Shown piece by piece: positions 14,712-62,040 of a stretch of DNA of 64,000 bases. Under the pieces are notes generated by a model that worked only from the letters and a program-made list of their open reading frames with translations, was not told the origin of the DNA and made no database searches. This stretch comes from a virus. Every line of letters starts with the position of its first letter. Within the stretch, counting starts at the first letter, position 1. The DNA lies in the IMG/VR virus record IMGVR_UViG_3300039208_000521. One strand, given 5' to 3'. The translations under genes and the position numbers were made by a program.

Positions 14712-15029
14712 TCATTGCATATGGCTGCCGGTCGTCGCACCCCCACAACTCGGACAATAAGGACTGTCCGACGACAGGTCCGCAAGACAGTAAGGGCAAG
14801 CATAGCCAGAGCCCGTAAGCCCGAGATACTCGGCGTACCCCATGATCGGTGCGTCTTCCGGGCCGTATTGAGCTTCGGGCATATTGTCGTTCATCATACC
14901 TTCGCCAGCCATCGATCCACCACCGTTCATCATTTGCCCTTGCTGTTCGGCAAGCGTCTCGGCGTCGGTCGCTGTCCCGTTCAGATGTCGGTAGATTCCC
15001 GTGGTCGGGAGGTAGTCCAATATACTCAT
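14712..15029 (-). CDS. acidic low-complexity protein with C-terminal zinc ribbon
   Basis: CPYC...CPSC; Met/Gly-rich. Confidence 0.55.
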   Translation of the reverse strand: MSILDYLPTTGIYRHLNGTATDAETLAEQQGQMMNGGGSMAGEGMMNDNMPEAQYGPEDAPIMGYAEYLGLTGSGYACPYCLADLSSDSPYCPSCGGATTGSHMQ

Positions 15030-15573: not shown

Positions 15574-15965
15574 TTCTTGTCTTTCTGGTCGGCAGCCATT
15601 GCAAACACCCGGCCGCATGTTGAAAAGAATGCGAGGCCGAACAACGCGGCTGTCATAAGCTGGTCATTGTCTGTCGGTTGAAACTTCTCGCCTTCCGCCA
15701 GCATAATAAGAACGCCGATGAACATCGCCCCGGCTATGCTTGCCGTGATCGGTTCGGCCTTGAAGAAGGTCACCGTTCCATGGATCAACCACACGCCCGA
15801 GCAAAGAATGACCACGACCAAGGCATAGGACAGGTATACCCATTCATTGTTCGGATCCCCAACCCACGAGATAAAACCCCCGTTGAACGGGTTCGCATAC
15901 ATGAAGGGTGCTATGCCTCGGAAACTGGCAACGCCCGCTATTTGAAAGGGGCCGGTAGCCATCAA
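15570..15965 (-). CDS. multi-pass membrane protein
   Basis: Three to four hydrophobic segments; coupled to the ATPase gene. Confidence 0.6.
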   Translation of the reverse strand: MMATGPFQIAGVASFRGIAPFMYANPFNGGFISWVGDPNNEWVYLSYALVVVILCSGVWLIHGTVTFFKAEPITASIAGAMFIGVLIMLAEGEKFQPTDNDQLMTAALFGLAFFSTCGRVFAMAADQKDKK

Positions 15966-17359
15966 TTCATACTCACATCTTCAATGACTGTTTCTCCGGG
16001 CATCTCGACCCGGTTCCTTTTCCGTCTCTGCACATAACCAGCGCCGAAACGATGGGCCATGTTTGCCCGCAACTTGAACAGGTTCCTCTCGTCCGGCTTC
16101 CCGAATTTTTTGAACGGGTTCTCCGGTGTTTTGACAATGATCGCCTTTTCCATATCCGATCCGCACTTAACATAAAGCCGGAAATTCGGAAGCGTTTTGA
16201 TCTCATCGTAGGTTCGATCGAGCTCCGGGGAGATATGCGAGACGCCCTTACCGACCATGGTTCCGCATACCTTCGTCGCGGTGCAGGTGAGGACAGCATC
16301 CCCCATCTCGGTCCCAATATGGCCGAACCTCGTGGTCGCAAGGTTAATCGAGAGACCGAACTTTCTATTCTCATCCAGCATACGGGCGAGAAGAGCACAA
16401 TTCCCTTTGTTCAAAGAATTCTGAAACTCATCTTCATAGAGCCGGATCGGAACACCCTTACCCCGGACACGTTCCTGCACCACGCGATTGACCACGGTCT
16501 TAACGAACTTGCCGATCAACCGGCAGCCGTTCTCGCCTAGGTGTTTCTTCCTTGTGGCGACCAGGATAACCGAGCCCGCTTCAATGACTTTAGCGAGGCT
16601 CATCGTCGGCTCTTTATTGATGAACAGCTTTGCAAGGATCGGATCGTTCAGGAACCCATGCACCCGCATGCGGACATATTTCACCGTCTCTCGGAAGCCG
16701 GCCGGACGTTTCTGTGTTCCGATGACATCCTCAACGAAGAACCGATACACATCGTCCTCGGGGTCCATGCCGAGTCCATCCATGAACTCAACCGGTGACT
16801 TAAGTAGCTCCATCAGATCACGAAGCGTTCGGTTCTCGACATGCATGAGAACCTGTGCGCAATAGCCGAACAGCGTCATCATCGGCGCCGTTAGTTCCTG
16901 GTCGATCAACCCCGCACAGACATCCTTGAATGAATTAATCATATAGGACGCCGCGAGATCTCCTTTCCGCTGCTCACCGGTTTCGAACAGCGATAGTCTC
17001 GGCATGCTGTCCGGGTCGCCGGGATCAATAAGAAAGACGTTCGGCTGGTCGTGAACGTTCGTGAATTTAAGGAATTCATCGATACCATCGACCGGGTCGA
17101 TGTAGATGAGCGTTAGTTTCTCATCGAGGGCACGCGGTAACTCCTCGGCCATCAGCCCATAAAGAAAACTCGACTTACCGCAACCGGAACGACCAACACA
17201 TAAGAGATGCTGGTTCCGTACCTCATCACTCATCCGGCCGACAGGCGATCGCCAATACTCGAACTTATCCATCAACCATTCTTTAACGAAGTCGTCGATG
17301 GTTCGTTTGCCGCGCTTCAGTTCCCAGCCAGCCTTACATATGTCAGTGAATGTGCTCAT
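15962..17359 (-). CDS. VirD4/TraD/HerA-like P-loop ATPase (DNA translocase/coupling protein)
   Basis: Walker A GRSGCGKS, Walker B LYEDEFQN, ENRKFGLSINLAT motif. Confidence 0.85.
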   Translation of the reverse strand: MSTFTDICKAGWELKRGKRTIDDFVKEWLMDKFEYWRSPVGRMSDEVRNQHLLCVGRSGCGKSSFLYGLMAEELPRALDEKLTLIYIDPVDGIDEFLKFTNVHDQPNVFLIDPGDPDSMPRLSLFETGEQRKGDLAASYMINSFKDVCAGLIDQELTAPMMTLFGYCAQVLMHVENRTLRDLMELLKSPVEFMDGLGMDPEDDVYRFFVEDVIGTQKRPAGFRETVKYVRMRVHGFLNDPILAKLFINKEPTMSLAKVIEAGSVILVATRKKHLGENGCRLIGKFVKTVVNRVVQERVRGKGVPIRLYEDEFQNSLNKGNCALLARMLDENRKFGLSINLATTRFGHIGTEMGDAVLTCTATKVCGTMVGKGVSHISPELDRTYDEIKTLPNFRLYVKCGSDMEKAIIVKTPENPFKKFGKPDERNLFKLRANMAHRFGAGYVQRRKRNRVEMPGETVIEDVSMN

Positions 17360-17375: not shown

Positions 17376-17612
17376 TTATGTGTCCTTTATGTGCTTTGCA
17401 AATCCGCCGGGGCCAAGCATCCCGTCGTGATATTTAAACCCATGTAGATCGTAGTTATCCTTCACCGCTTGTTGGTCCAATGCATGTTCCTTGACCGCTT
17501 TTCCAACGTCCGGTTCCCATCCATCGGGTCGTCCGGGATGGTACGCCTGCGATGACAGCATTCCTCCTTGGTGTAGTTCCTGGAAAATACTCTCACCGTC
17601 GTCCAGCATCAT
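17376..17612 (-). CDS. small acidic protein (ML-motif family)
   Basis: Starts MMLDD, overlapping the relaxase stop; GML twice. Confidence 0.5.
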   Translation of the reverse strand: MMLDDGESIFQELHQGGMLSSQAYHPGRPDGWEPDVGKAVKEHALDQQAVKDNYDLHGFKYHDGMLGPGGFAKHIKDT

Positions 17613-18565
17613 TGACCGATACTCCAACGATCACCGTTGACCTTTCGCCAGATGCCATCAAACGCCCTTTCTTTAACATCAGAAAGCGTCGCAATTCTGA
17701 ACGCAGGAGCAACAGGTTTATCCTTCACCCATGAACTCACTAATTTCATGCGATCTTCGGAACGCCTTTCATCCGCCCCATCAAGGATCACATAAAGAAG
17801 GACAGGTTTTCCCCAATTAAAACGACGGGTTTGCTGCACGAAAAGGGCGCTGTAATTGATGAACTTTTTCAGGATGATTTGCGGGGCTCTATTCGTCCTT
17901 TCCAACTCTATATAGAATGTGAAATCCAGACCCAATTTTTTCGCTCGCGTGTGTGCGATTAAATCAGCCCGTAATTCATTGTCCGTATTATAGAGTTCCG
18001 TGGTCGCGACCCGGTGCTTCCCTTCTATCTCTGTCGTAACGAAGTCGGGAACCGTGTCCAGGATCTCGTAGCTCGGTGACCGGCGCGCAGCCATCGATAA
18101 TCCGAGGATGATATCCACAATGCCGAGGTGATGGGGCATCTGAGAATGATTCAATACCTTCCCCCTCCAGCTACGGGTTAGGAGATACGTGGGGTCCACT
18201 ACAACCCTATCGAGTATACACCTCTCTGCTCCCGCTGTCGTTAGGGAATAGATCGGTTTCGATCCACCGGAGAACACGGAGTCCGGCTTAGTCTGTCTGC
18301 CGGACCATACGAACCAGGAGACCAGCCGGCGTTCCCGTAGAGCGGAGAGATAGCGCTGCACATTCCGCTCGGATTGGCTCATGTAGGTCATGAGTGTCTC
18401 GACCGAAGCAAAGCGGAGAACGGCAAGGGCCTCAAGAGTCTGCCGTAAACGTGGCGTGACCGTATCGGGCAAGCGCTCGGAAGCCGGAAGCTTGCCAAAA
18501 CGACGTCCTGATAACTGTCGGTCGAGGTGTCGATCCGCTCGACAAAATAATTCCTGAATATCCAC
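17609..18565 (-). CDS. replication-relaxation (Replic_Relax-like) protein
   Basis: N-terminal wHTH (LAVLRFASVETL...RYLSALRERRLV), YSLTTAG, HHLGIVDI, AD...FYIELERT, PVLLYV; adjacent to the VirD4-like ATPase. Confidence 0.8.
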   Translation of the reverse strand: MDIQELFCRADRHLDRQLSGRRFGKLPASERLPDTVTPRLRQTLEALAVLRFASVETLMTYMSQSERNVQRYLSALRERRLVSWFVWSGRQTKPDSVFSGGSKPIYSLTTAGAERCILDRVVVDPTYLLTRSWRGKVLNHSQMPHHLGIVDIILGLSMAARRSPSYEILDTVPDFVTTEIEGKHRVATTELYNTDNELRADLIAHTRAKKLGLDFTFYIELERTNRAPQIILKKFINYSALFVQQTRRFNWGKPVLLYVILDGADERRSEDRMKLVSSWVKDKPVAPAFRIATLSDVKERAFDGIWRKVNGDRWSIGQ

Positions 18566-18644: not shown

Positions 18645-18899
18645 TTACGCCGTTGAGAGCATGCTATCTCCGTCCCTTTTAAAGAGTTCCGCTGCCCTGC
18701 ACTTCGTGCATACCTCCGGGTAGGTGCCGGTAGCGAGTAGACCCTTGCGCCCGCATTGCGCACAGCTCTCGACCAAGGGTGTGTAGCTATGGTCCTCGGG
18801 CTCCGGGTACGGGAAATCCTCGGTCGGTCCCTGCACTGGTTCCGGGGGATCATTCAGCATTTCGAGGAGAGCCCACACCATCAGTTCACCCGTTCCCAT
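18645..18899 (-). CDS. small zinc-ribbon protein with SML motif
   Basis: CAQC...CTKC; ends DSMLSTA. Confidence 0.55.
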   Translation of the reverse strand: MGTGELMVWALLEMLNDPPEPVQGPTEDFPYPEPEDHSYTPLVESCAQCGRKGLLATGTYPEVCTKCRAAELFKRDGDSMLSTA

Positions 18900-19111
18900 T
18901 CATCCTGGAAACAATCGTCAGCCGGACATATATGTTTCACTTCGTTCGGTTTCGTATCGAACCCCGGCCGCTCCTCCGTTAGGTCAAGCATGTCCCGTGT
19001 CCGGCATTCGTGCCCGCATGATCTACAGCGCCAAAGGAACTTGGACCGGAAATCTTTTTCGGGGTGATCGACCAAATGATCGGGATAGGAGATCATTCCG
19101 ATGGGTTTCAA
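18881..19111 (-). CDS. small Cys-rich protein
   Basis: CRSC and CPADDC; overlaps neighbours. Confidence 0.55.
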   Translation of the reverse strand: MKPIGMISYPDHLVDHPEKDFRSKFLWRCRSCGHECRTRDMLDLTEERPGFDTKPNEVKHICPADDCFQDEWERVN

Positions 19112-19368
19112 CTCAACATGCTCCCGCTGCTTTTCTCGGTGATATGCGGCGTGATGTTATCGTTACTGACCCAGTCGGGCTTGTGTGCCATCCAGTTGTC
19201 AACGTCGTCATATTTATCCTGCAACATGCTCCTGGTTCCCGACGAAAGGTCGCTCTCACTTATTCCTTTCTCGCTTAGGATGCTATCGACCTGATCTTTA
19301 ACTTTCTTCGTTACCGGGTGCATAACGTCTCCTAATTCACGGCGTTCTTCGACTGACAATCCGAACAT
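19108..19368 (-). CDS. small acidic SML-motif protein
   Basis: RSMLQD and terminal GSMLS. Confidence 0.55.
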   Translation of the reverse strand: MFGLSVEERRELGDVMHPVTKKVKDQVDSILSEKGISESDLSSGTRSMLQDKYDDVDNWMAHKPDWVSNDNITPHITEKSSGSMLS

Positions 19369-19532
19369 TCATAACCGTCGACATGGTTGCCGGTAGCCGG
19401 GGGCTTATTCTCCCCGCACGAAGTGCAGCCGTTATCCTCGTCATCATCCAGCATGAATTCCGGGGGTATTTCATCCCGAGCCATGCGTTCCGGTTCAGCA
19501 TCACTGAATGTCCGGTCACTGAGCATACTCAT
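19332..19532 (-). CDS. small zinc-ribbon SML-motif protein
   Basis: Starts MSMLSD; CTSC...CSDC. Confidence 0.55.
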   Translation of the reverse strand: MSMLSDRTFSDAEPERMARDEIPPEFMLDDDEDNGCTSCGENKPPATGNHVDGYECSDCQSKNAVN

Positions 19533-19819
19533 TGCTCTTCACTCCCGGCTGTTGGCCATGTGCTGTAGTCCTTATCGAAGTTGATCTCCCTTGTTTCATC
19601 AGCCCAATCCTTCACGGAAGCAGCACCATCAAGCATGCTTGAACTAACAGCCGATGCCCCGCCCATGAGAGCGCCGCCGGCCAACATCGATGTACCGACC
19701 ACTGTGTTCGCTGCTTCACCTGTGTATTCAATGCCGTCTTCAATCCCACCAAAGATGTGGTTTGCTGTTCGGGTATAGGGTCCGGGTGTCTTCCGGCCCC
19801 AGAGGTGATGCTTCTTCAT
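19529..19819 (-). CDS. small SML-motif protein
   Basis: TSMLAG and SSMLDG. Confidence 0.55.
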   Translation of the reverse strand: MKKHHLWGRKTPGPYTRTANHIFGGIEDGIEYTGEAANTVVGTSMLAGGALMGGASAVSSSMLDGAASVKDWADETREINFDKDYSTWPTAGSEEQ

Positions 19820-36590: not shown

Positions 36591-37650
36591 AATTTATCTA
36601 TATGGGTATGACGTTAGTTATTCTTGAAAGCACGAATCAGTATTAAGTGTTTTCATACACTTAGTTTTTTAAAAAGGTTGTTCTGCGGCCGAAAAATTTT
36701 CACCCTGTCAATATATAAAATTTGGAAAAATGTCGAATTTTTTCCTTGACAGTCTACCGGCCCCTCTAAGGCCCTTCCCTGTAAACCGGCTTCCTATCCA
36801 CGGTGCCTGGTTACCGGTGTCCTATGGTCAGATACGGGCTTTCTAGGTACGGTTTCCGGTAACCAAGTCCATGCAACATGTATTTAGGGGGTTATATGTA
36901 CATAGTGTGTATTCCCACACTAGCAGTATCTAGGATATCGACCTAATTGTAAAGGATAATATTCAAGAATATAAGCCTAGATACTAATATCCTAAGTACC
37001 TGATTTATAAGGACACCTTCCTACAAAGTTCGATAACGTGCATTATGACAAATACCCTGTGACTATTTACCTATTCTGGCCAGTAAAAATATTGATATTC
37101 CTACATTTTTATTTTAGGAATATTGTCCAGGTGAAATTTCTCCTTGACACCTATTGCGCCAAGCGCCATACTGCTAGTGTGGGAATGCGTACCAATGGTT
37201 GCCGGGAACCGGTTACCGAATTAGGGCCCCAAGTTGCCTGTAGTAATGAATAATAATCCCTACCCCATTATTGGGGGGTCTATTTAGAATGTTCTATCCC
37301 CCCTGAAATAATACGCCCTATACGTAAATTAAGCATGGCTGGTTACTGATATATGGGGTGGGGTATACTATGGGTATAGTATGTATAATACATATATCAT
37401 TATACTAATGTATTATATGTATATTATGTTGAATATTATACTTGACATATGATAGGAGATGATAGGATAATGCATAGAGATAAAGGAGATGAATGATGTA
37501 AGTCGGTAACCCGCTATGGATAAGGTTATACCCACCTTCCAACTTTTAATTCACGGGTCCTAAATTAAATGAACGTCCGGGCTAGCCGCATAGAGAAAAT
37601 TTTCGGGGGAATCAGGATTCGAAAAATTTTCTACGCGCGTACACGATTGG
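36590..37650. other. AT-rich non-coding divergence point between leftward and rightward transcription
   Basis: No credible ORF; very AT-rich tract at 37381-37440; + strand TTGACA at 37144 and 37442; repeated GGTTACC/GGTAACC. Confidence 0.65.
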
Positions 37651-40258: not shown

Positions 40259-40581
40259 CCGACAGCCGAGCATATTCGGAAGTTAACCCAGTTGTCGGAA
40301 GGACAATCAAGGCAAATCTTGCAACGCTCAAGATGTCGTTGACCGCCATAGCCCATCATTTAGGTACAAGTCCTTCAAATCTTAGGTATGTATTAGACGG
40401 CGACCGGTGTCTGAGTCCTGAATTAGCTGCGAGATTGCATTGGAAGTTTGATTTGGACACACAACAACTTTTGATCGATCAAGTTTTATTTTCTTACAAG
40501 AGAGCCTTAACTAAGGCGCCGAAAAATATTGGCGGTAAATGGGACAGACGAAAAGAGAAAAAAGGATACTTTGACAGATGA
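40255..40581 (+). CDS. XRE/HigA-like helix-turn-helix regulator
   Basis: MSLTAIAHHLGTSPSNLRYVLDGDRCLSPELAARL. Confidence 0.75.
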   Translation: MTDSRAYSEVNPVVGRTIKANLATLKMSLTAIAHHLGTSPSNLRYVLDGDRCLSPELAARLHWKFDLDTQQLLIDQVLFSYKRALTKAPKNIGGKWDRRKEKKGYFDR

Positions 40582-41120
40582 CCAAACCGCAAATCCCCTC
40601 GCTCTATGACTTCGTCCGGGATAATTGGCACCGGGTCTCCAATGAGACGTTTTCCGAAGACCGAGGCTCCTACGCCCTTTGCTCGGAAATCAGTCGCGCC
40701 CTAGCCGAACCCAACCCAGCCGGGTATTTCCGCCATAGGCGCTGCGGTAAGACCATCATCGGCTCTGTTCTCCTTCCGATTTGGGTTTGGATGAGGGATC
40801 CGGCAGCCGATATTCTGATCGTCCAGCCGGATAAATATTGGCGGAATATCCGCACTCGAACTTTCATCAGGGTCGCCCGTGAAATGGGCATCCCGGTTTC
40901 CGGCGTCCTACTCTCATCCCAAGAGAACCCCTTGGGCGGTAGCCGAGTAACCACGGATCCTTATGTGTTCTTGGGCTATGAAGCCGATGTGCTGGTCTTC
41001 GATGACGCTTTTATCAGAACCGGCGACAGTCCGATGACCCGTGCCGCCGCTCGCGAGGCGCGAGAGCATTGGCCTTGCAAGCTAAAGCCGAATGGAACCC
41101 TGATCGAGTTGGTGAGCTGA
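40578..41120 (+). CDS. truncated terminase-like ATPase domain
   Basis: RRCGKT Walker A, ADVLVFDD Walker B, colinear with the N-terminal 210 aa of TerL; no nuclease domain. Confidence 0.65.
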   Translation: MTKPQIPSLYDFVRDNWHRVSNETFSEDRGSYALCSEISRALAEPNPAGYFRHRRCGKTIIGSVLLPIWVWMRDPAADILIVQPDKYWRNIRTRTFIRVAREMGIPVSGVLLSSQENPLGGSRVTTDPYVFLGYEADVLVFDDAFIRTGDSPMTRAAAREAREHWPCKLKPNGTLIELVS

Positions 41121-41136: not shown

Positions 41137-41421
41137 ATGACAGAATTCGACGAAACCTGCTACATCGCGGTCAAAGCCCTGGAGCCCCATGCTTATGGCG
41201 TCCCGATTGTGGGGTTCCTGCAAGCTTCTCTCGGAAGAGAGCCGAACATAGGCTTGATGTACGCCGCCTTGGATCGTTTGGAGAAAGGGGGCTACCTGAC
41301 GTCCGAGCTCAAAGACCGCGGCGACCCAAAACGAAGCGGCGAGCCTTGTCGGTATTTCCAGACCACGGGAAAGCATCTGCCGGAAAGGAGGGCATCTTTT
41401 GTCAAGCATGCTTGGGCATAA
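41137..41421 (+). CDS. PadR-family winged-helix regulator
   Basis: AYGVPI...IGLMYAALDRLEKGGYLTS...RYFQTT. Confidence 0.8.
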   Translation: MTEFDETCYIAVKALEPHAYGVPIVGFLQASLGREPNIGLMYAALDRLEKGGYLTSELKDRGDPKRSGEPCRYFQTTGKHLPERRASFVKHAWA

Positions 41422-41743
41422 TGGCGGGCCGTCCATGTTGGACACCTATCCGTCCGACGCCAAGCTCCTTCAATATAAAAGTCCGGGGCAAGCCTTCGAT
41501 GCGTATAGCCGACCCAAAGACGGTGAGACCTTCATCAACCGCAAAACGCGTGATCACATCAACGATCATATGGAGCGGCGGGGGCTTTCTAATACGGCTT
41601 GGGAAGGTGGCTATGACGACATACCCTCAGACGGCCATACGATCACAGCTGAAAGTTGGGACTTGCCGGATAAGGCGGAACGGGACAGACTTAAACAGAA
41701 GATGATAGAAGAGAATAGCATGTTGGAGGATCAGACACCGTGA
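41399..41743 (+). CDS. acidic SML-motif protein
   Basis: Three SML copies. Confidence 0.6.
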   Translation: MSSMLGHNGGPSMLDTYPSDAKLLQYKSPGQAFDAYSRPKDGETFINRKTRDHINDHMERRGLSNTAWEGGYDDIPSDGHTITAESWDLPDKAERDRLKQKMIEENSMLEDQTP

Positions 41744-41940
41744 CACCTGATAACCAGGAAACAGCCTCGAATTCCATGCTGGACGAGAAGATTGGTTCCT
41801 CGATGCTGGATGTGGCGTCCGAGGAGCAAAGAGAGCAAATGCTCCAAGAAGCCCGGAACACGATCGAGGATGATCGACGGAATGCCGACTATGGCGGGCC
41901 GAAGTTCGTGAACCCCTTTATCGAGCACATGAAATCGTGA
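41740..41940 (+). CDS. acidic SML-motif protein
   Basis: Two SML copies plus QML; GTG start coupled to the upstream gene. Confidence 0.6.
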   Translation: MTPDNQETASNSMLDEKIGSSMLDVASEEQREQMLQEARNTIEDDRRNADYGGPKFVNPFIEHMKS

Positions 41941-42104
41941 GCGACGATATTTATATCATTGACGACCCTTATGAGGAGCCCGAAAACCCCTTCCCGCCGG
42001 ATTCCAAACTCGGGAAGATCTACCGCCGTGAAGCCGACCGCGAGATCAAGGAAACCGTTCTTCGGTGGTTTCGGAAAATGCTGCCCGAAAGGTTTTCGAA
42101 ATGA
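41937..42104 (+). CDS. 55-aa protein resembling the terminase Walker B segment
   Basis: Hand-translated MSDDIYIIDDPYEE...ETVLRWFRKMLPERFSK; GTGA/ATGA overlaps on both sides. Confidence 0.55.
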   Translation: MSDDIYIIDDPYEEPENPFPPDSKLGKIYRREADREIKETVLRWFRKMLPERFSK

Positions 42105-42481
42105 GCATGCTCTCCGAAGGTCCCTCGGGTGTTTTCAAGAATTTTGTCTATGAGAATTTTACCGGTGACATGGATCACCCCGACTATTGGAAGAATCACC
42201 CGTCTGATCAAAAACGCGCCCTTGTCTCCAAGATGAATGACGCGCACTCAGACCCGGTCGACGCAGCCGAGGGCGGGCTCACGGAAAGCATGCTTGCCGG
42301 TCAAGATCCTGATGATCCACGCTGGAAGAAGATGCGCGAGCTCTCACAAGACTACCGGAAAATTCCTGTACGCGCGCGTAACGACTTTGAGACCGAAGAA
42401 GAATGGGAAGCCCACAACCAAGCAAAGGATGCCGATATCGATCAAGCCGATAAAAAGGCCTATGCCAAGGCGTTTGGCTAG
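42101..42481 (+). CDS. acidic SML-motif protein
   Basis: Starts MSMLSE; TESMLA internally. Confidence 0.6.
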   Translation: MSMLSEGPSGVFKNFVYENFTGDMDHPDYWKNHPSDQKRALVSKMNDAHSDPVDAAEGGLTESMLAGQDPDDPRWKKMRELSQDYRKIPVRARNDFETEEEWEAHNQAKDADIDQADKKAYAKAFG

Positions 42482-51175: not shown

Positions 51176-51457
51176 ATGAGCAGCCGCGTTATCGGAGCCT
51201 TAATCGGTATTTGGTCATATTTGCAAAGATACCGAAATGAGCTGTGTGTCGAAGGACAGACTAAGAATGTTCTACGGTATGCATTTAAAAGAGCTTGGTT
51301 AAATGTTCTAAGAAGAAATAAAGATGATCTTCACCCAGATCATAGAGAACAACTAGAGAGACAAAATAGTGCAAGAGAAGTGTACCAAAAAGAAACAGTA
51401 ACTTATTCGGGAGAAACTATTCATCCGCCCACTATAAGCCATGGCCCTAAAGAGTGA
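51176..51457 (+). CDS. hypothetical protein (AT-rich insert)
   Basis: Start MSSRVIG within the track ORF. Confidence 0.45.
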   Translation: MSSRVIGALIGIWSYLQRYRNELCVEGQTKNVLRYAFKRAWLNVLRRNKDDLHPDHREQLERQNSAREVYQKETVTYSGETIHPPTISHGPKE

Positions 51458-52995
51458 AACGCCGAGCCCCTCTTAACATCGACAAGGCTCTCTGTGAGCT
51501 GGAGCTCCGCTCCTTCGTCAATCAGATGTGGCCTGTTTTGGAGCCGGGGCGAACCTTCACTAACGGTATGCCAGTCGATGCTGTTTGTGAGCACTTGGAG
51601 GCGGTTGCTGAAGGCCAGATAAAACGTCTGGTCATCAACATCCCGCCGGGTTGCACCAAGTCGATGCTGACCAATGTGTTTTGGCCGTGTTGGATATGGG
51701 GGCCCCGGCGAAGACCTTCTGCACGGTTCTTGTCAATCGCCTACAACGCCGGTTTGACGGTGAGAGACAACCGCAGATCTAGAACCCTATTGGAGTCACA
51801 TGAATATAAACAACTTTGGCCCCATGTTAGTCTCAATCCTCACGAACAAAACGTACAGAAGTTTTCAAATCTACAACAAGGCTTCCGAATGGCGTCGTCC
51901 ACAGGCGGGCGAGTCATGGGTGAGCGCGCCGATATTGTTATTATTGATGACCCAAATGACACGGCCAAGGTCGAATCAGAACAAGCGATCGAGAGCGCTC
52001 TCCAATTTTTCACAGAAGTGCTCCCCACGCGCATTAATGATCCCAAAGAAAGCTGCATGGTCGTCATTATGCAAAGGGTCCACTCGCGGGATATTTCCGG
52101 TTTCATCCTTAGCCAAGAGCTTGGTTGGGATCACCTTTGCCTTCCCATGTGGTACGAGAAGGATAGGCATTGTGTCACGTCGATAGGGTTTGAAGACTGG
52201 CGCCGAGAAGAAGGGGAACTCTTATGGCCGGAACGGTTCGATGAGACATCTCTCGCACGGGATGTCAAAATCATGCGCGCCTGGGGCGGCGACTTCGCTA
52301 TCGCTGGACAAATGCAACAGCGTCCAGTTGGTCGTGAAGGCGGCATGTTCAAGAAGAAATACTTTGAAATTGTCGACGTTGTCCCGCCTGGGGGCCGTAT
52401 CGTTAGGGGTTGGGATCTTGCCGCTACGTCGAAAGCTCAAAATCCTAGAGCGGCGTTTACGACCGGTGTTAAGGCGAAAATTGTCGGTGGGGTCTTATAC
52501 ATTCTTGATGTGGTACGAACCCGAAAAGAACCGGCCCAGGTCGAGGAATTCGTTTACCAGTGCGCTTTAGCTGATGGCCGGAAAGTTACGCAAGACATAC
52601 CTCAAGATCCGGGCCAATCAGGCAAAACACAAAAAGTCGCGTATGGAAAAAGGCTCGAAGGCTTCGACGTCCGCTTCAGCCCGGAAACCGGCGACAAGAC
52701 CAACAGAGCCATTCCCTTGTCAGCAAAGGGAGAACTTGGTCTAATAAAACTCGCTCGCGGGATGTGGAATGAAGACTTTTTGTCTGAAATCACTATGTTT
52801 CCACGGGGAGATTACAAGGATCAGGTCGATGCTCTTAGCCGTTGCTATGGGCGCTTGCTTGTGCAACCTGTCCCCAAAGTACCAGCCAAACCGATATTGG
52901 TGACAGCTCATGGCGACACTGCTAGCCCCTCGCAAGGATCCTTCCGACCGCCGGTTGGTGAATCAACACGGGGTGCCGATACCCCAGCGAATTAG
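51454..52995 (+). CDS. terL: terminase large subunit
   Basis: NIPPGCTKS Walker A, IVIIDDP Walker B, MQRVH, GWDLA nuclease motif, DQVDA. Confidence 0.95.
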   Translation: MKRRAPLNIDKALCELELRSFVNQMWPVLEPGRTFTNGMPVDAVCEHLEAVAEGQIKRLVINIPPGCTKSMLTNVFWPCWIWGPRRRPSARFLSIAYNAGLTVRDNRRSRTLLESHEYKQLWPHVSLNPHEQNVQKFSNLQQGFRMASSTGGRVMGERADIVIIDDPNDTAKVESEQAIESALQFFTEVLPTRINDPKESCMVVIMQRVHSRDISGFILSQELGWDHLCLPMWYEKDRHCVTSIGFEDWRREEGELLWPERFDETSLARDVKIMRAWGGDFAIAGQMQQRPVGREGGMFKKKYFEIVDVVPPGGRIVRGWDLAATSKAQNPRAAFTTGVKAKIVGGVLYILDVVRTRKEPAQVEEFVYQCALADGRKVTQDIPQDPGQSGKTQKVAYGKRLEGFDVRFSPETGDKTNRAIPLSAKGELGLIKLARGMWNEDFLSEITMFPRGDYKDQVDALSRCYGRLLVQPVPKVPAKPILVTAHGDTASPSQGSFRPPVGESTRGADTPAN

Positions 52996-54547
52996 AGAGA
53001 CCAATGTTGCTCGGACCCGAGGCGGTGCTGGGTTTTCGGTTCATGGCGGTTATCTCGATGAGAAAGAGACGTCTGGCTCTCTTACCGGCCGGGAACGCTT
53101 CCGCACTTATTCTCAAATCCTTGCCGATACGACCATCGTCGCTTCCGGTGTCCGGTACTTCTTGAACCTTGCCGCCAAGACACCTTGGAAGGCGAGGCCG
53201 GCGAACGATACCCCTGAAGCCAAGGAAATGGCTGAGTTCGTCGAGAAGATGTTTAAGGAGATGAAGACCCCGATGCACCGGGTCGTTCGTCAAGCAGCGA
53301 TGCACCGCATGTACGGCTTCGCCACCATGGAGTGGACAGCCGAAAGGATGGACGATGAACGAGGAAGTTACCGGGTCTCGCACATCGAGAACCGCCCGCA
53401 ATGGACGATCGAGCAGTGGGACACAGATTTCTCAGGCCGAGTTCTTGGCGTTATCCAGTGGCCTATCCAACAACCTAGTCTCCGAATCTATCTTCCTAGA
53501 AACAAACTCGTCTACCTCTGTGATAACTCATTCACGGATGATCCGAGAGGTTTGGGCATTCTTCGACACGTCGTCCGTCCGGTCAAACAACTTAGAGACT
53601 ACGAGCGCTTAGAGCATATCGGCTTCGCGACCGATATGAAGGGTATTCCGGTTGCCAAGGCCCCGCTTGCGGAAATTCAGGCCGCACAGGACAATGGCGA
53701 TCTTGAAGAGGCAGACGCCTTGGAGATCACCAAACCTCTCCGGGACTTCATCACCAATCATATCCGGGGCACGGACACCGGTATCCTCTTAGATAGTTCT
53801 GTTTACGCCGGGAGTGGTGAAGATGAGACCCCAATCAAAGCCGAAAAGTTCTCGATTGAGCTCTTGTCCGGTGGCTCCTATGGCCACAAGGAAATTGCTG
53901 AAGCCATTGAGCGTATCAACCGGGAGATCGCCCGAGTTCTGGGAGTCGAACAATTACTCTTGGGCGCGGATAGTGCCGGTTCTCTCGCCCTCTCGCGTGA
54001 TAAAAGCCAAGCGTTTTTCATGGTGGTTAACGCAGCGCTGAGCGAAATCAAGTCCGCCCTTATCGCTGATATCCTCATGCCGATATGGGCGCTGAATAAT
54101 TTCGACCCGGAGCTGATGCCCCAACTTGACTTTGAGAGCGTTGAGTTCAAAGACCCTGAACAGATCTCGAAAGTCATCAAAGACCTTGCGACGTCCGGTG
54201 TTCCGATTGAAACCGAAGATCCCCTTGTCACGGAGTTGCTGGCGGTTGTCGGTCTGTCGCCGCTTGATCTTGCGTTGCGTGACGAGAAGATGGAAATCCG
54301 TATCCAAATGGCTCGTCTCGGTCTTGATGAGAATGGTCTTCCGCTTCCAGGCGGCAATCCTTTCATGCAGCAAGCCGGTCCTAGCGGGGGCTCTTCTAGT
54401 GAGTCTAGTCCTGGTCAACTCTCAGGTAATCTTGCTGGCGTTGATCCTGGGGGTAGCGCTGATGACGCTCTTCGCGCCTTGCAAGGAAGACGAGCGGCTA
54501 GAAGCAATCAAGCGCGCCCTCAAAGACCAACCAATGTCCCGAGGTAA
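52910..54547 (+). CDS. portal protein (DUF935/Mu gp29-like)
   Basis: Follows TerL; DDPRGLGILR, INREIARVLG motifs; 545 aa. Confidence 0.85.
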   Translation: MATLLAPRKDPSDRRLVNQHGVPIPQRIRETNVARTRGGAGFSVHGGYLDEKETSGSLTGRERFRTYSQILADTTIVASGVRYFLNLAAKTPWKARPANDTPEAKEMAEFVEKMFKEMKTPMHRVVRQAAMHRMYGFATMEWTAERMDDERGSYRVSHIENRPQWTIEQWDTDFSGRVLGVIQWPIQQPSLRIYLPRNKLVYLCDNSFTDDPRGLGILRHVVRPVKQLRDYERLEHIGFATDMKGIPVAKAPLAEIQAAQDNGDLEEADALEITKPLRDFITNHIRGTDTGILLDSSVYAGSGEDETPIKAEKFSIELLSGGSYGHKEIAEAIERINREIARVLGVEQLLLGADSAGSLALSRDKSQAFFMVVNAALSEIKSALIADILMPIWALNNFDPELMPQLDFESVEFKDPEQISKVIKDLATSGVPIETEDPLVTELLAVVGLSPLDLALRDEKMEIRIQMARLGLDENGLPLPGGNPFMQQAGPSGGSSSESSPGQLSGNLAGVDPGGSADDALRALQGRRAARSNQARPQRPTNVPR

Positions 54548-56374: not shown

Positions 56375-57532
56375 ATGACGCGTGAAGCCTTCAGTTTTGG
56401 CGGACTCGTCAATGAAACAGGTGAACGGCAGTCATTTTCGTTTGGTGGTCTCCTTAATGAGACGATTGTTCAGGACACCGGCTTATCGGGATCCAGTGAC
56501 TCTATCTCGGGGTCACAAGCCGACCTTACTCGTGGTCTAAATCTATCGGGTTCGGCTGCTTCGGTATCGAGCTCACAGGCTAATCTCTCACAGACGATCA
56601 ATCTTTCGGGCTCGGCGGACAGTGTTTCCGGTTCCCAGGCTGAGCTTGCATCAGGAATCAATCTTTCCGGCTCAGCTGATAGTGTCTCTGGATCACAAGC
56701 CGATCTTACCCAAGGGATCAATCTTTCTGGCACCGCCGCCAGTCTGTCCGGTTCACAAGCGAACCTTGTCCTAGGCATTGATCTATCCGGCTCAGCTGAT
56801 GCTGTCTCCGGGTCGCAGGCTGACCTTGAGCATGAGATCCGGCTATCGGGTTCCATCGACAGCGTGTCCGCTCTTACGGGATCGCTCCAAGGTGCCGTTG
56901 ATCTTTCCGGTTCTAGTGACTCGGTCTCTGCTCTTACGGGCTCGCTCCAAGGCGACGTGCAGCTGTCCGGCTCTGCCGATAGTGTGTCCGGTTCCCAGGC
57001 CGATCTTGAGCACGAGATCCGGCTATCTGGTTCCGCTGACGCTGTTTCCGGGTCGCAAGCGAACCTTGATCGAACCATCGGTCTTTCGGGAACAGCCGCG
57101 TCTCTCTCCGGTTCCTTGGCAAATCTCACCCAAGGCATCAATCTCTCGGGCATTGCCGCCGCTGTCTCCGGGTCACAGGCGACCTTGCAAGGCGACATCA
57201 ATCTCTCTGGTTCAGCCGATAGTATTTCAGGGTCACAGGCCAATCTCCAGCGCGGTATTAATCTTTCTGGGCAAAGCAATTCTCTCTCCGGTTCCTTGGC
57301 TGATCTCCTTACCGGAAAGAATTTAAGCGGTGTCTCTGCGTCTCTCTCCGGTTCTCTTGCATCACTGTCCTTGCAGATTAACTTGCAAGGCTCTATTGAT
57401 TCACAGTCAGTCTTAAGTGGAACTCTGGAGGGGGTTGCACAGACTGTTGACGACTTCGAGGTTGCTTTTGACGCCGATCGGTTTGTTCCAGCCTTTGACC
57501 CGAATCAGTTCGTGGTCTCGTTTGAGGACTAG
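56375..57532 (+). CDS. virion protein with 16 tandem 20-aa repeats
   Basis: Repeat consensus INLSGSADSVSGSQA(D/N)LxxG, counted by hand. Confidence 0.8.
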   Translation: MTREAFSFGGLVNETGERQSFSFGGLLNETIVQDTGLSGSSDSISGSQADLTRGLNLSGSAASVSSSQANLSQTINLSGSADSVSGSQAELASGINLSGSADSVSGSQADLTQGINLSGTAASLSGSQANLVLGIDLSGSADAVSGSQADLEHEIRLSGSIDSVSALTGSLQGAVDLSGSSDSVSALTGSLQGDVQLSGSADSVSGSQADLEHEIRLSGSADAVSGSQANLDRTIGLSGTAASLSGSLANLTQGINLSGIAAAVSGSQATLQGDINLSGSADSISGSQANLQRGINLSGQSNSLSGSLADLLTGKNLSGVSASLSGSLASLSLQINLQGSIDSQSVLSGTLEGVAQTVDDFEVAFDADRFVPAFDPNQFVVSFED

Positions 57533-60448: not shown

Positions 60449-60880
60449 ATGGCTAGGAAACAGACTTTCGAGGCAGTCCGCACCGTTACTATGATTGCGG
60501 GCGAAGATCTAACAGGTGATCTTTATCGTGTGGTCACCATGAACACTGATGGTGAAGCCGTGCTCGCTACGGCTGCCGGCGACTATTGTCTCGGTGTCGT
60601 GGCAATGAACCCCAATCTCAGTCAAGGCAACACCGCTTCGAGCGAGAATAATCCGGTTCGGATTGCTTTGCTTGATGGCATTGTCACGATTGAGGCAGGA
60701 GGCGCCATTGCGGCGGGCGATTTGGTTCATGCGGCTGCAAACGGTCAGATCGTTTCGGCGGGGGCCAATATCGCCGCTTTAGCAGCCGGGGATTACGTCA
60801 TCGGTCAGGCTATGGAAGCGGCAAGTGCAGCCGGGGAACAGATCTCCGTCTTCGCTCGTCCGTTCCTGCACGCCGCTTAG
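60449..60880 (+). CDS. capsid decoration/cement protein (DUF2190-like)
   Basis: AGEDL...VEAGGAIAAGD.V.....GQ...VIG.AMEAA.AAGE.I. Confidence 0.75.
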   Translation: MARKQTFEAVRTVTMIAGEDLTGDLYRVVTMNTDGEAVLATAAGDYCLGVVAMNPNLSQGNTASSENNPVRIALLDGIVTIEAGGAIAAGDLVHAAANGQIVSAGANIAALAAGDYVIGQAMEAASAAGEQISVFARPFLHAA

Positions 60881-60900: not shown

Positions 60901-62040
60901 GTGGGTAAAATGAATATCGAGCAAATCTTCAAACAGAACGGGTTGGAAGGTCTTCTTACCAATCCCGTGATCGCCGAGGAAATCATGAAGGCGGGCTTTG
61001 GCTCTCCTTCGACGGGCGATGTCCATGTGGACGCTATTCTGACGAACATCAGTCTGGCGTTTATGCAGGATATGAGCAACTTCGTGGCACGCCGAGCGTT
61101 CCCTGAGGTGTCGGTCTCGAAGCAATCGGACGTGTATTTCACCTATCCACGGGGCGAGTTCAACCGGGATCAGATGGAAGAGCGGGCACCCGGCACAGAG
61201 TCGGCGGGCGCCAACTACAGGCTGGCCACACAAGGTTACCGGTGCAGGGTCTACGCTTTGCACAAAAACCTTGATGACCAGACCCGTTCGAACGTCGACA
61301 GCCCGCTTCAGCTTGATCGCGAGACGACGATGTTCTTGACGCTCAAGGCCATGCTCAATCAGGAGATCGATTGGGTCGGCCGTTACATGGGCGGAACAGG
61401 TCTCGGCTTCAGTGCCGCACCGGGCGGGACTTGGACATTTGCGGCTGATGGTGTTGCCGCCGGTGCCACGGCTCGGGCTTCTCTCGATTTCACTGATGGT
61501 GCGAACAACAACGTGCTCCAGTGGTCGGTTGATGGTTCCTCGCCTATCGAGAATATTCGTGATGCCAAGCGCGCCATGCTCCAGGAGACCGGCTTTGAGC
61601 CGAATGTCTTGGTGATGGGTCGAAGCGTTGCGGATATCTTGAAGGATCACCCAGACCTCATCGATCGCATTGACCGTGGCCAGACCTCGGGCGCTGCGCA
61701 GATGACCATGGAAGGCATCCGAGAGCTGTTCGAGCTTGACGAGATCTTGGTGTCTAATGCCATCCAGAACACAGGGAAGCTTGGCGCAGCCGCAAATCAT
61801 AGCTTCATCGCTGGCGACAATGCGCTCTTGCTCTATCGCCCGCCGGCTGCCGGTCTCATGACCCCGGCCGCTGGGTACACCTTCCTGTGGTCTGGGTTCG
61901 TCGGCGCCAACAATGGCGGTCTTCGTATCAAGAACTTCAGGATTGAGACGCACGAGAGCGATCGTATCGAGGCGCAGGTTGCCTACGACCACAACCGGGT
62001 CGCGGCCGATCTTGGTCTCTACTGGAACGACATCGTCTGA
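60901..62040 (+). CDS. major capsid protein (HK97 fold)
   Basis: 379 aa after decoration protein; VDAILTNISLAF, FPEVSV.KQSD.Y, PN.LVMG, AGYTF motifs. Confidence 0.9.
   Translation: MGKMNIEQIFKQNGLEGLLTNPVIAEEIMKAGFGSPSTGDVHVDAILTNISLAFMQDMSNFVARRAFPEVSVSKQSDVYFTYPRGEFNRDQMEERAPGTESAGANYRLATQGYRCRVYALHKNLDDQTRSNVDSPLQLDRETTMFLTLKAMLNQEIDWVGRYMGGTGLGFSAAPGGTWTFAADGVAAGATARASLDFTDGANNNVLQWSVDGSSPIENIRDAKRAMLQETGFEPNVLVMGRSVADILKDHPDLIDRIDRGQTSGAAQMTMEGIRELFELDEILVSNAIQNTGKLGAAANHSFIAGDNALLLYRPPAAGLMTPAAGYTFLWSGFVGANNGGLRIKNFRIETHESDRIEAQVAYDHNRVAADLGLYWNDIV

Follow-up and report, generated by a model that had tools for sequence, protein, structure and literature searches.

A recurrent Ser-Met-Leu tripeptide as a probable short linear docking motif in small acidic accessory proteins of an uncultured siphophage and its relatives

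Terminal tags for AAA+ proteases include the ssrA-like tails and the N- and C-motif classes of ClpX, which were reportedly laid out by Flynn et al. in 2003. Sliding clamps have binding motifs of their own: QL[SD]LF in bacteria and, in phage T4, the gp45-binding C-terminal tails of gp43, gp33 and gp55. Here we describe a tripeptide, Ser-Met-Leu (SML), that recurs in small proteins encoded by IMG/VR virus record IMGVR_UViG_3300039208_000521, and compare it with such systems; the window, below, is the whole 64,000-nucleotide stretch of this record that was analysed. The phage is uncultured, comes from an aquatic metagenome and is an alphaproteobacterial-type siphophage; the cultured phage closest to it by major head protein is Roseobacter phage RDJL Phi 1 (53% identity). 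The likely hosts are alphaproteobacteria, and contigs related to the window occur in metagenome-assembled genomes of Geminicoccaceae. Two operons encode the proteins that carry SML. The motif is genuine and under selection: it is enriched far beyond chance, lies in frame, clusters towards protein ends, turns up in non-homologous proteins and persists in homologues from related phages. We regard it as probably a lineage-specific short linear docking motif, carried at exposed termini and in linkers by at least seven accessory proteins that are small, acidic and otherwise unrelated.

A first-pass annotation of the window had reported two clusters of genes with SML. Both exist. Cluster 1 has six in-frame copies in four minus-strand genes at 18645-19819, and in the three genes of cluster 2, here called SML1, SML2 and SML3, all seven listed copies are in frame where they had been placed (Table 1). 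The same annotation set these copies against an expectation of about 0.1, a figure that was post hoc because it was based on the carrier proteins alone. In our unbiased test, genes were called by a codon-usage score and every tripeptide was scored against per-protein composition; the caller skipped the window gene for TerL, whose codon usage is atypical for the window. The whole window proteome (19,016 amino acids, aa) contains 15 SML against 2.5 expected (p = 8.5e-8), which is third in rank, and the two tripeptides that outrank it, SGS and LSG, both stem from one repeat protein. Among the 113 window proteins of up to 150 aa SML ranks first, with 14 copies against 1.44 expected (p = 5e-10), and MLD, which overlaps it, ranks second. 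When residues were shuffled within proteins, 0 of 300 shuffles matched the extremity of SML for any tripeptide, the lowest shuffle p being 3.9e-7. Chance as the origin of the copies is ruled out by these shuffles.

Related contigs were reached through the TerL 90%-identity cluster and through Replic_Relax homologues. Two of them, an ENA contig of 74.6 kilobases (kb), here relative A, and a 20 kb contig, relative B, have a TerL nearly identical to that of the window; L005, L007, L008 and L013 are more distant relatives. The over-representation seen in the window is found in all three phages of the closer group. SML is the top tripeptide in the small proteins of relative A (11 against 1.26 expected, p = 1e-7, reached by 0 of 300 shuffles) and in those of relative B (5 against 0.54 expected). 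The control sets, namely the replication arms of the four distant relatives and RDJL Phi 1, gave no SML signal, with a best p of about 1e-4, and none of the 70 proteins of RDJL Phi 1 contains SML.

Tripeptide counts of this kind also pick out repeat proteins. The window encodes a 385-aa head-module protein (56375-57532, plus strand) with internal short repeats, which holds 22 SGS and 20 LSG, and relative A has a fusion of the two genes that follow the adaptor gene, giving an 876-aa protein rich in VSG/SGS. In L008 a repeat is suggested by RWP, GRW and WPE, each with 10-12 occurrences where about 0.4 would be expected; coverage of that contig is low (3.4x).

Conservation of SML in homologues from related phages had been named in advance as a check that could overturn the reading, and the nearest relatives keep SML. 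The homologue of SML1 in relative A (L003:10001-10198, E = 6e-8) has it at the aligned position, and the homologue of SML3 (L003:12180-12455, E = 5e-4) has the N-terminal copy, with SRL at the internal one. Terminal SML is thus retained in both against a background diverged to 32-37% identity. Relatives A and B also have new carriers, including zinc-ribbon proteins that start with MSMLEPG or contain two copies. Conservation is clearest in the family of a 71-aa cluster 1 protein, in which S-[M/C/S]-L-[D/S/N] followed by the stop codon, after a linker of variable length, ends seven of eight aligned members (GSMLS, QSMLD twice, RSMLD, SSCLD, ESCLN and NSSLD); the other member is tailless, and an additional copy of the family in L013 ends in GSLDN. 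Because distant relatives read SVL, SCL, SIL, SLL or SSL at homologous positions, the older form of the motif appears, from these alignments, to have been S-hydrophobic-L, and the clade of the window appears to have settled on Met and to have spread the motif to more proteins.

The three closely related genomes are mosaic. TerL (51454-52995 in the window) is at least 90% identical across the window and relatives A and B, whereas the accessory genes nearby have either been replaced or share only about 30-60% identity. Relative B has a TerL of 835 aa (L002 10001-12508), which holds an intein with a LAGLIDADG domain; those of the window and of relative A have no intein.

In form, the motif has the properties of a short linear motif (3-10 residues with few fixed positions): S-M-L is fixed and the next residue is restricted, being D, E, S, G, A or Q in 24 of 25 copies (13/14 in the window, 11/11 in relative A). 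None of the partial patterns xML, SxL and SMx shows enrichment by itself. The copies often sit at the N- or C-terminus, as the first-pass annotation had said: 18 of the 25 in the window and relative A fall within the first 14 or last 8 residues, where 7.1 are expected (p = 1e-5). Pairs of copies spaced exactly 9 residues apart occur in SML1, in SML2 and in the protein encoded at L003:12452-12739.

This placement bears on one of the functions suggested earlier, a protease cleavage or packaging signal. SML could be the site of a phage protease or a capsid-targeting signal, or a decoy for a defence protease of the host that cleaves after Leu, and the small or acidic residue that follows it is as in protease sites; one copy lies in a protein weakly similar to head-maturation proteases. 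Cleavage at residues 2-4, or 1-3 residues before the stop, would however free few residues, so near the ends do these copies lie. The carrier genes, moreover, are in small accessory operons outside the head module, and no SML was found in the major head protein, scaffold, portal or adaptor (genes 52910-54547, 60449-60880 and 60901-62040 checked). We therefore judge a cleavage or packaging role to be decidedly improbable.

Codon choice within SML was claimed to vary, and it does in that Ser is drawn from both of its codon families and Leu from four codons; the choice is nonetheless uneven, with AGC over-used. AGC is the Ser codon in 8 of the 13 window cluster copies against 19% genome-wide. When 32 SML copies are taken together (among them those at window 41405, 42104, 42287, 19639 and 18665), 17 have AGC, which otherwise makes up about 20% of Ser codons overall and 27% of those in Ser-Met pairs that Leu does not follow. 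This excess, together with a palindrome that can encode SML, AGCATGCT, suggests another reading, in which the selected unit would be a DNA or RNA word (AGCATGCT or GCATGC, for example a binding or modification site) and SML its translation. The window has 6 copies of the palindrome where about 1 would be expected; of the 24 SML sites found in relative A and the window clusters, 11 have this sequence, and GCATGC is frequent in both genomes and rare in L005 and L008. Yet 12 of the 15 genic copies of the palindrome lie in the single frame that yields SML, the majority of SML copies are not palindromic, using TCC, TCG or AGT for Ser or TTG for Leu, and GCATGC is spread over all frames. A selected nucleic acid word is in our view very improbable; we reject the palindrome as the primary signal because of its frame distribution, which points to selection on the reading frame rather than on the DNA word. 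Selection on the peptide, as a multivalent short linear motif, had been proposed from the window, and this proposal has been strengthened by the unbiased enrichment, by its replication in two genomes, by terminal conservation at about 35% identity and by the frame test.

Two further observations concern the nucleotide level. The window has 28 copies of GCATGC, a SphI-type site, and 20 kb of relative A have 18, L005 has a single copy and L008 has none, a contrast that may come from differing restriction pressure across hosts. The Met codons of SML were also considered as hidden translation starts, and this is ruled out by weak Shine-Dalgarno pairing: its energy is -3.2 at SML Met codons and -5.0 at real starts (-2.3 at other internal Met codons).

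The carriers are acidic, as first noted, with isoelectric points (pI) of 4.05-5.09. When they were compared with the motif masked, 19 of 21 pairs gave z below 3, so the motif recurs in non-homologous proteins; weak residual similarity was left in two pairs, with a z of 3.3 between the two zinc-ribbon proteins and of 3.9 between SML1 and the 71-aa protein. Pfam, PHROGs and NCBIfam had no family for any SML protein. AlphaFold models the 71-aa protein as a helical hairpin with a mean predicted local distance difference test score (pLDDT) of 83 and its last five residues below 50. The claim that the carriers are disordered is weakly backed by an Atlas model of SML1 (pLDDT 0.54) and a model of SML3 (mean pLDDT 50.6), both of them from shallow alignments. 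For accessibility of the motif, the terminal position of most copies and the flexible tail of the 71-aa model are favourable, yet in that model two S-x-L sites fall within helices, and confidence in the cluster 2 models is low.

The helical sites fit a reading without any common partner, in which SML would reflect a structural preference, as a helix N-cap or an amphipathic turn, and/or be a remnant of diverged paralogues. The capping-box pattern is S-x-x-[DE], which S-M-L-D/E fits; with the two helical S-x-L sites go the two weakly similar carrier pairs and the AGC excess, which would fit descent from a single copy. However, copies within the last 4 residues or before Gly/Pro-rich sequence cannot cap a helix, a capping box would not predict a strong terminal bias, enrichment is not seen for S-x-L with a middle residue other than Met, and most carrier pairs show no similarity. 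Structure or ancestry as the whole explanation is unlikely, although we give it some weight.

Several points count against the docking motif that we prefer. The distant relatives were sampled on the replication arm only. Because some carriers of the window have homologues among those of relative A, the two genomes do not count as fully independent evidence of enrichment. The sequencing runs in which the phage occurs are DNA runs from a single aquatic study, with no RNA run among them. The AGC excess hints at a component at the nucleotide level or from common descent. Some SML copies, like the two S-x-L sites of the 71-aa family, lie inside predicted helices and may be structural, and disorder is claimed from low-confidence models built on shallow alignments.

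If SML is a docking motif, one common partner would recognize the whole set of carriers by it, and the pairs 9 residues apart would allow bivalent binding to an oligomer. Since free termini are favoured, we consider the most likely partner to be a ring-shaped machine acting on protein ends, either an ATPase or a protease; this might be a host AAA+ protease, for which SML would be a degron, or a phage ATPase. There are two candidates of the latter kind, the FtsK-like ATPase encoded beside cluster 1 and the TerL-ATPase-like protein encoded beside cluster 2. A more far-reaching proposal is that SML is a portable label by which one ring ATPase (the FtsK-like motor encoded near the relaxase or the clade-specific TerL-ATPase paralogue) grips about ten small, unrelated effectors by their ends and handles them as a set, label and reader having been retuned together in one sublineage, with S-C/V/L-L becoming S-M-L; the set would then be exported, co-transferred or timed for destruction. 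In this full form the proposal seems to us a long shot.

A special case of docking would make SML the signal or adaptor tag of the relaxase-ATPase module of the phage, made up of Replic_Relax, the FtsK/EccC-like ATPase and two membrane proteins; a substrate tag for the VirD4-like ATPase was among the earlier suggestions. SML would then act much as substrates of type IV or type VII secretion do when they dock by their C-terminal tails on coupling ATPases. Cluster 1 immediately precedes this module and has the orientation of its genes. The gene of the 71-aa family, whose C-terminal S-x-L-D tail is conserved, is directly upstream of Replic_Relax in relative A, L005 and L008 and two small genes upstream of it in the window, and zinc-ribbon proteins with N-terminal MS[MILV]LDY come after the membrane proteins. 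The ATPase has a P-loop weakly like that of FtsK/EccC. Against this, the likeness is confined to the P-loop, cluster 2 is in the other arm, 22 kb off, and the ATPase is kept in all relatives, including those where SML is not enriched. A predicted complex of the ATPase with the 71-aa protein (score 0.02, mark 0.32) comes from a single run and reads neither for nor against binding. We think a tag dedicated to this module doubtful.

The cluster 2 genes had also been described as interleaved with terminase fragments. Two neighbouring genes do resemble segments of TerL, the 180-aa gene and the 55-aa gene, the latter at the Walker B segment; the resemblance is weak, with a pairwise E of 0.002 in each case. 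From this setting came the suggestion that the SML proteins mimic the Walker-A segment of TerL (TKSML) and form a locus of terminase mimicry. The P-loop of TerL does read CTKSML, but this single SML lies inside the P-loop helix, and it is not kept even in the TerL-like fragment, whose aligned helix has KTII. The SML proteins show no similarity to TerL (z -0.8 to 1.0), and cluster 1 has no terminase context. Mimicry of TerL is accordingly hard to credit. The TerL-ATPase-like family itself (three clusters matched) was found only in the window phage, relatives A and B and one Logan fragment, which is the same clade as that with SML enrichment.

Table 1. Positions of the cluster 2 and cluster 1 genes, their SML copies and neighbouring genes in the window
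Feature	Nucleotides	Strand	Residues	Remarks
TerL-ATPase-like gene	40578..41120	+		180 aa; nuclease-less; adjoins cluster 2; weak alignment to TerL P-loop region, E 0.002
PadR-like regulator gene	41137..41421	+		Directly upstream of SML1, same operon
SML1 gene	41399..41743	+		114 aa; pI 4.96; overlaps end of PadR-like gene
SML copies in SML1	41405-41413, 41432-41440, 41717-41725		3-5, 12-14, 107-109	In frame: MSSMLG, PSMLD, NSMLE
SML2 gene	41740..41940	+		66 aa; pI 4.42; GTGA overlap with SML1
SML copies in SML2	41773-41781, 41800-41808	+		NSMLD, SSMLD; spacing 9 residues
55-aa gene	41937..42104	+		Between SML2 and SML3; without SML; translationally coupled on both sides
SML3 gene	42101..42481	+		126 aa from ATG 42101; N-terminus MSMLS
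SML copies in SML3	42104-42112, 42287-42295		2-4, 63-65	MSMLS, ESMLA
FtsK/EccC-like P-loop ATPase gene	15962..17359	-		Downstream of cluster 1; candidate partner
Replic_Relax family gene	17609..18565	-		Between cluster 1 and FtsK-like ATPase
Cluster 1 gene, zinc ribbon	18645..18899	-		84 aa (or 78); C-terminus DSMLSTA-stop
Cluster 1 gene, predicted helical hairpin	19108..19323	-		71 aa; flexible tail GSMLS-stop; second SML in helix 2
Cluster 1 gene, zinc ribbon	19332..19532	-		66 aa; N-terminus MSMLSD; L008 has MSSLD/GSVLD, L013 MSVLD
Cluster 1 gene, Gly-rich	19529..19819	-		96 aa; two SML, TSMLAGG and SSSMLDG; L013 homologue has SVL at one site

Cluster 2 is part of a rightward operon of small genes, with a strong promoter-like site ahead of it at 37442-37471; no convincing terminator was seen in the operon before 42481. 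The gene order is TerL-ATPase-like, PadR-like, SML1, SML2, the 55-aa gene and SML3, and the last four are coupled through the start-stop overlaps GTGA, GTGA and ATGA. We prefer TTG 41399 as the start of SML1 because GGAGGG lies 6 nucleotides upstream of it; gene callers differ here, the ESM Atlas record starting at Met13, the Met of the second SML. SML3 most likely starts at ATG 42101, giving 126 aa instead of 138, because this ATG overlaps the stop of the 55-aa gene (ATGA), and MSMLS is therefore the N-terminus. A 90-aa protein of relative B (L004 5888-6160) is homologous, at 40% identity, to the product of the 55-aa gene.

Motif-like peptides occur in further proteins. A 78-aa gene between Replic_Relax and the ATPase (17376-17612, minus strand) starts with MMLDD and holds GMLSS and GMLGP, which resemble the motif with Ser missing. 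A zinc-ribbon family encoded 3' of the two membrane proteins (window 14712-15029, minus strand; L006 13443-13978; L005 13017-13250; L013 12919-13188) shares the N-terminus M-S/G-[M/I/L/F]-[L/A]-D-[Y/W]-x-P, a longer peptide with the S-x-L-D core inside.

Database searches gave few further relatives. A profile search with the 71-aa family yielded 6 small relatives, and a homologue search with SML3 returned only the query itself. No match to SML1, SML3, the TerL-like profile or TerL came from scans of IMG/VR and JGI metagenomes, and a phage DNA search and a PDB fold search with the 71-aa model were likewise negative. ESM Atlas gave no usable feature match for SML1, and no paper naming an 'SML motif' was found in the literature.

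Most small early phage proteins have no recognizable function, and a shared selected tag would unite about ten of them as a functional set. The SML peptide could serve as bait to fish out the partner, which gives a direct experimental handle. The motif would extend the few short linear motifs documented in phage biology, and it provides a case of a motif that spread to new proteins while its middle residue shifted (C/V/I/L/S to M) between sublineages. Were SML to be a degron or a motor-recognition signal, co-regulated phage effectors could be predicted from sequence alone.

Like the AAA+ protease tags, SML is a very short peptide at the extreme termini of unrelated proteins, a placement that characterizes those tags, and its putative reader would be, as theirs is, one ring machine. 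The tags differ in that S-M-L-[D/E/S/G/A], judged by inspection, is not known to fit any described class (LAA-type tails, basic or hydrophobic N-motifs), and in that SML is also internal and in tandem. Clamp-binding motifs likewise let one short terminal motif dock unrelated proteins on an oligomeric hub, and in T4 the system is phage-encoded. SML, however, lacks the Gln and the terminal aromatic/hydrophobic pair and has an acidic residue after it; none of 25 SML flanks combines a hydrophobic residue after Leu with Gln at position 1, as in the QL[SD]LF or QLxLxL consensus, and no clamp gene was seen in the window.

The 71-aa protein, a helical hairpin with a flexible C-terminal tail encoded beside the gene of an FtsK-like ATPase, recalls the tails of type VII secretion (that of EsxB on EccC) and of type IV. 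Its family has no WXG or YxxxD/E, though, the likeness of the ATPase is limited to the P-loop, and there is no secretion apparatus. With the T4 capsid-targeting sequence and the prohead-protease sites SML shares the principle of a short tag common to unrelated small phage proteins; it differs in lying too near the ends, in being absent from head proteins and in having its carriers outside the structural module. By sequence, SML falls under none of the definitions of degrons, clamp-binding motifs or secretion tails; in concept, it resembles them all.

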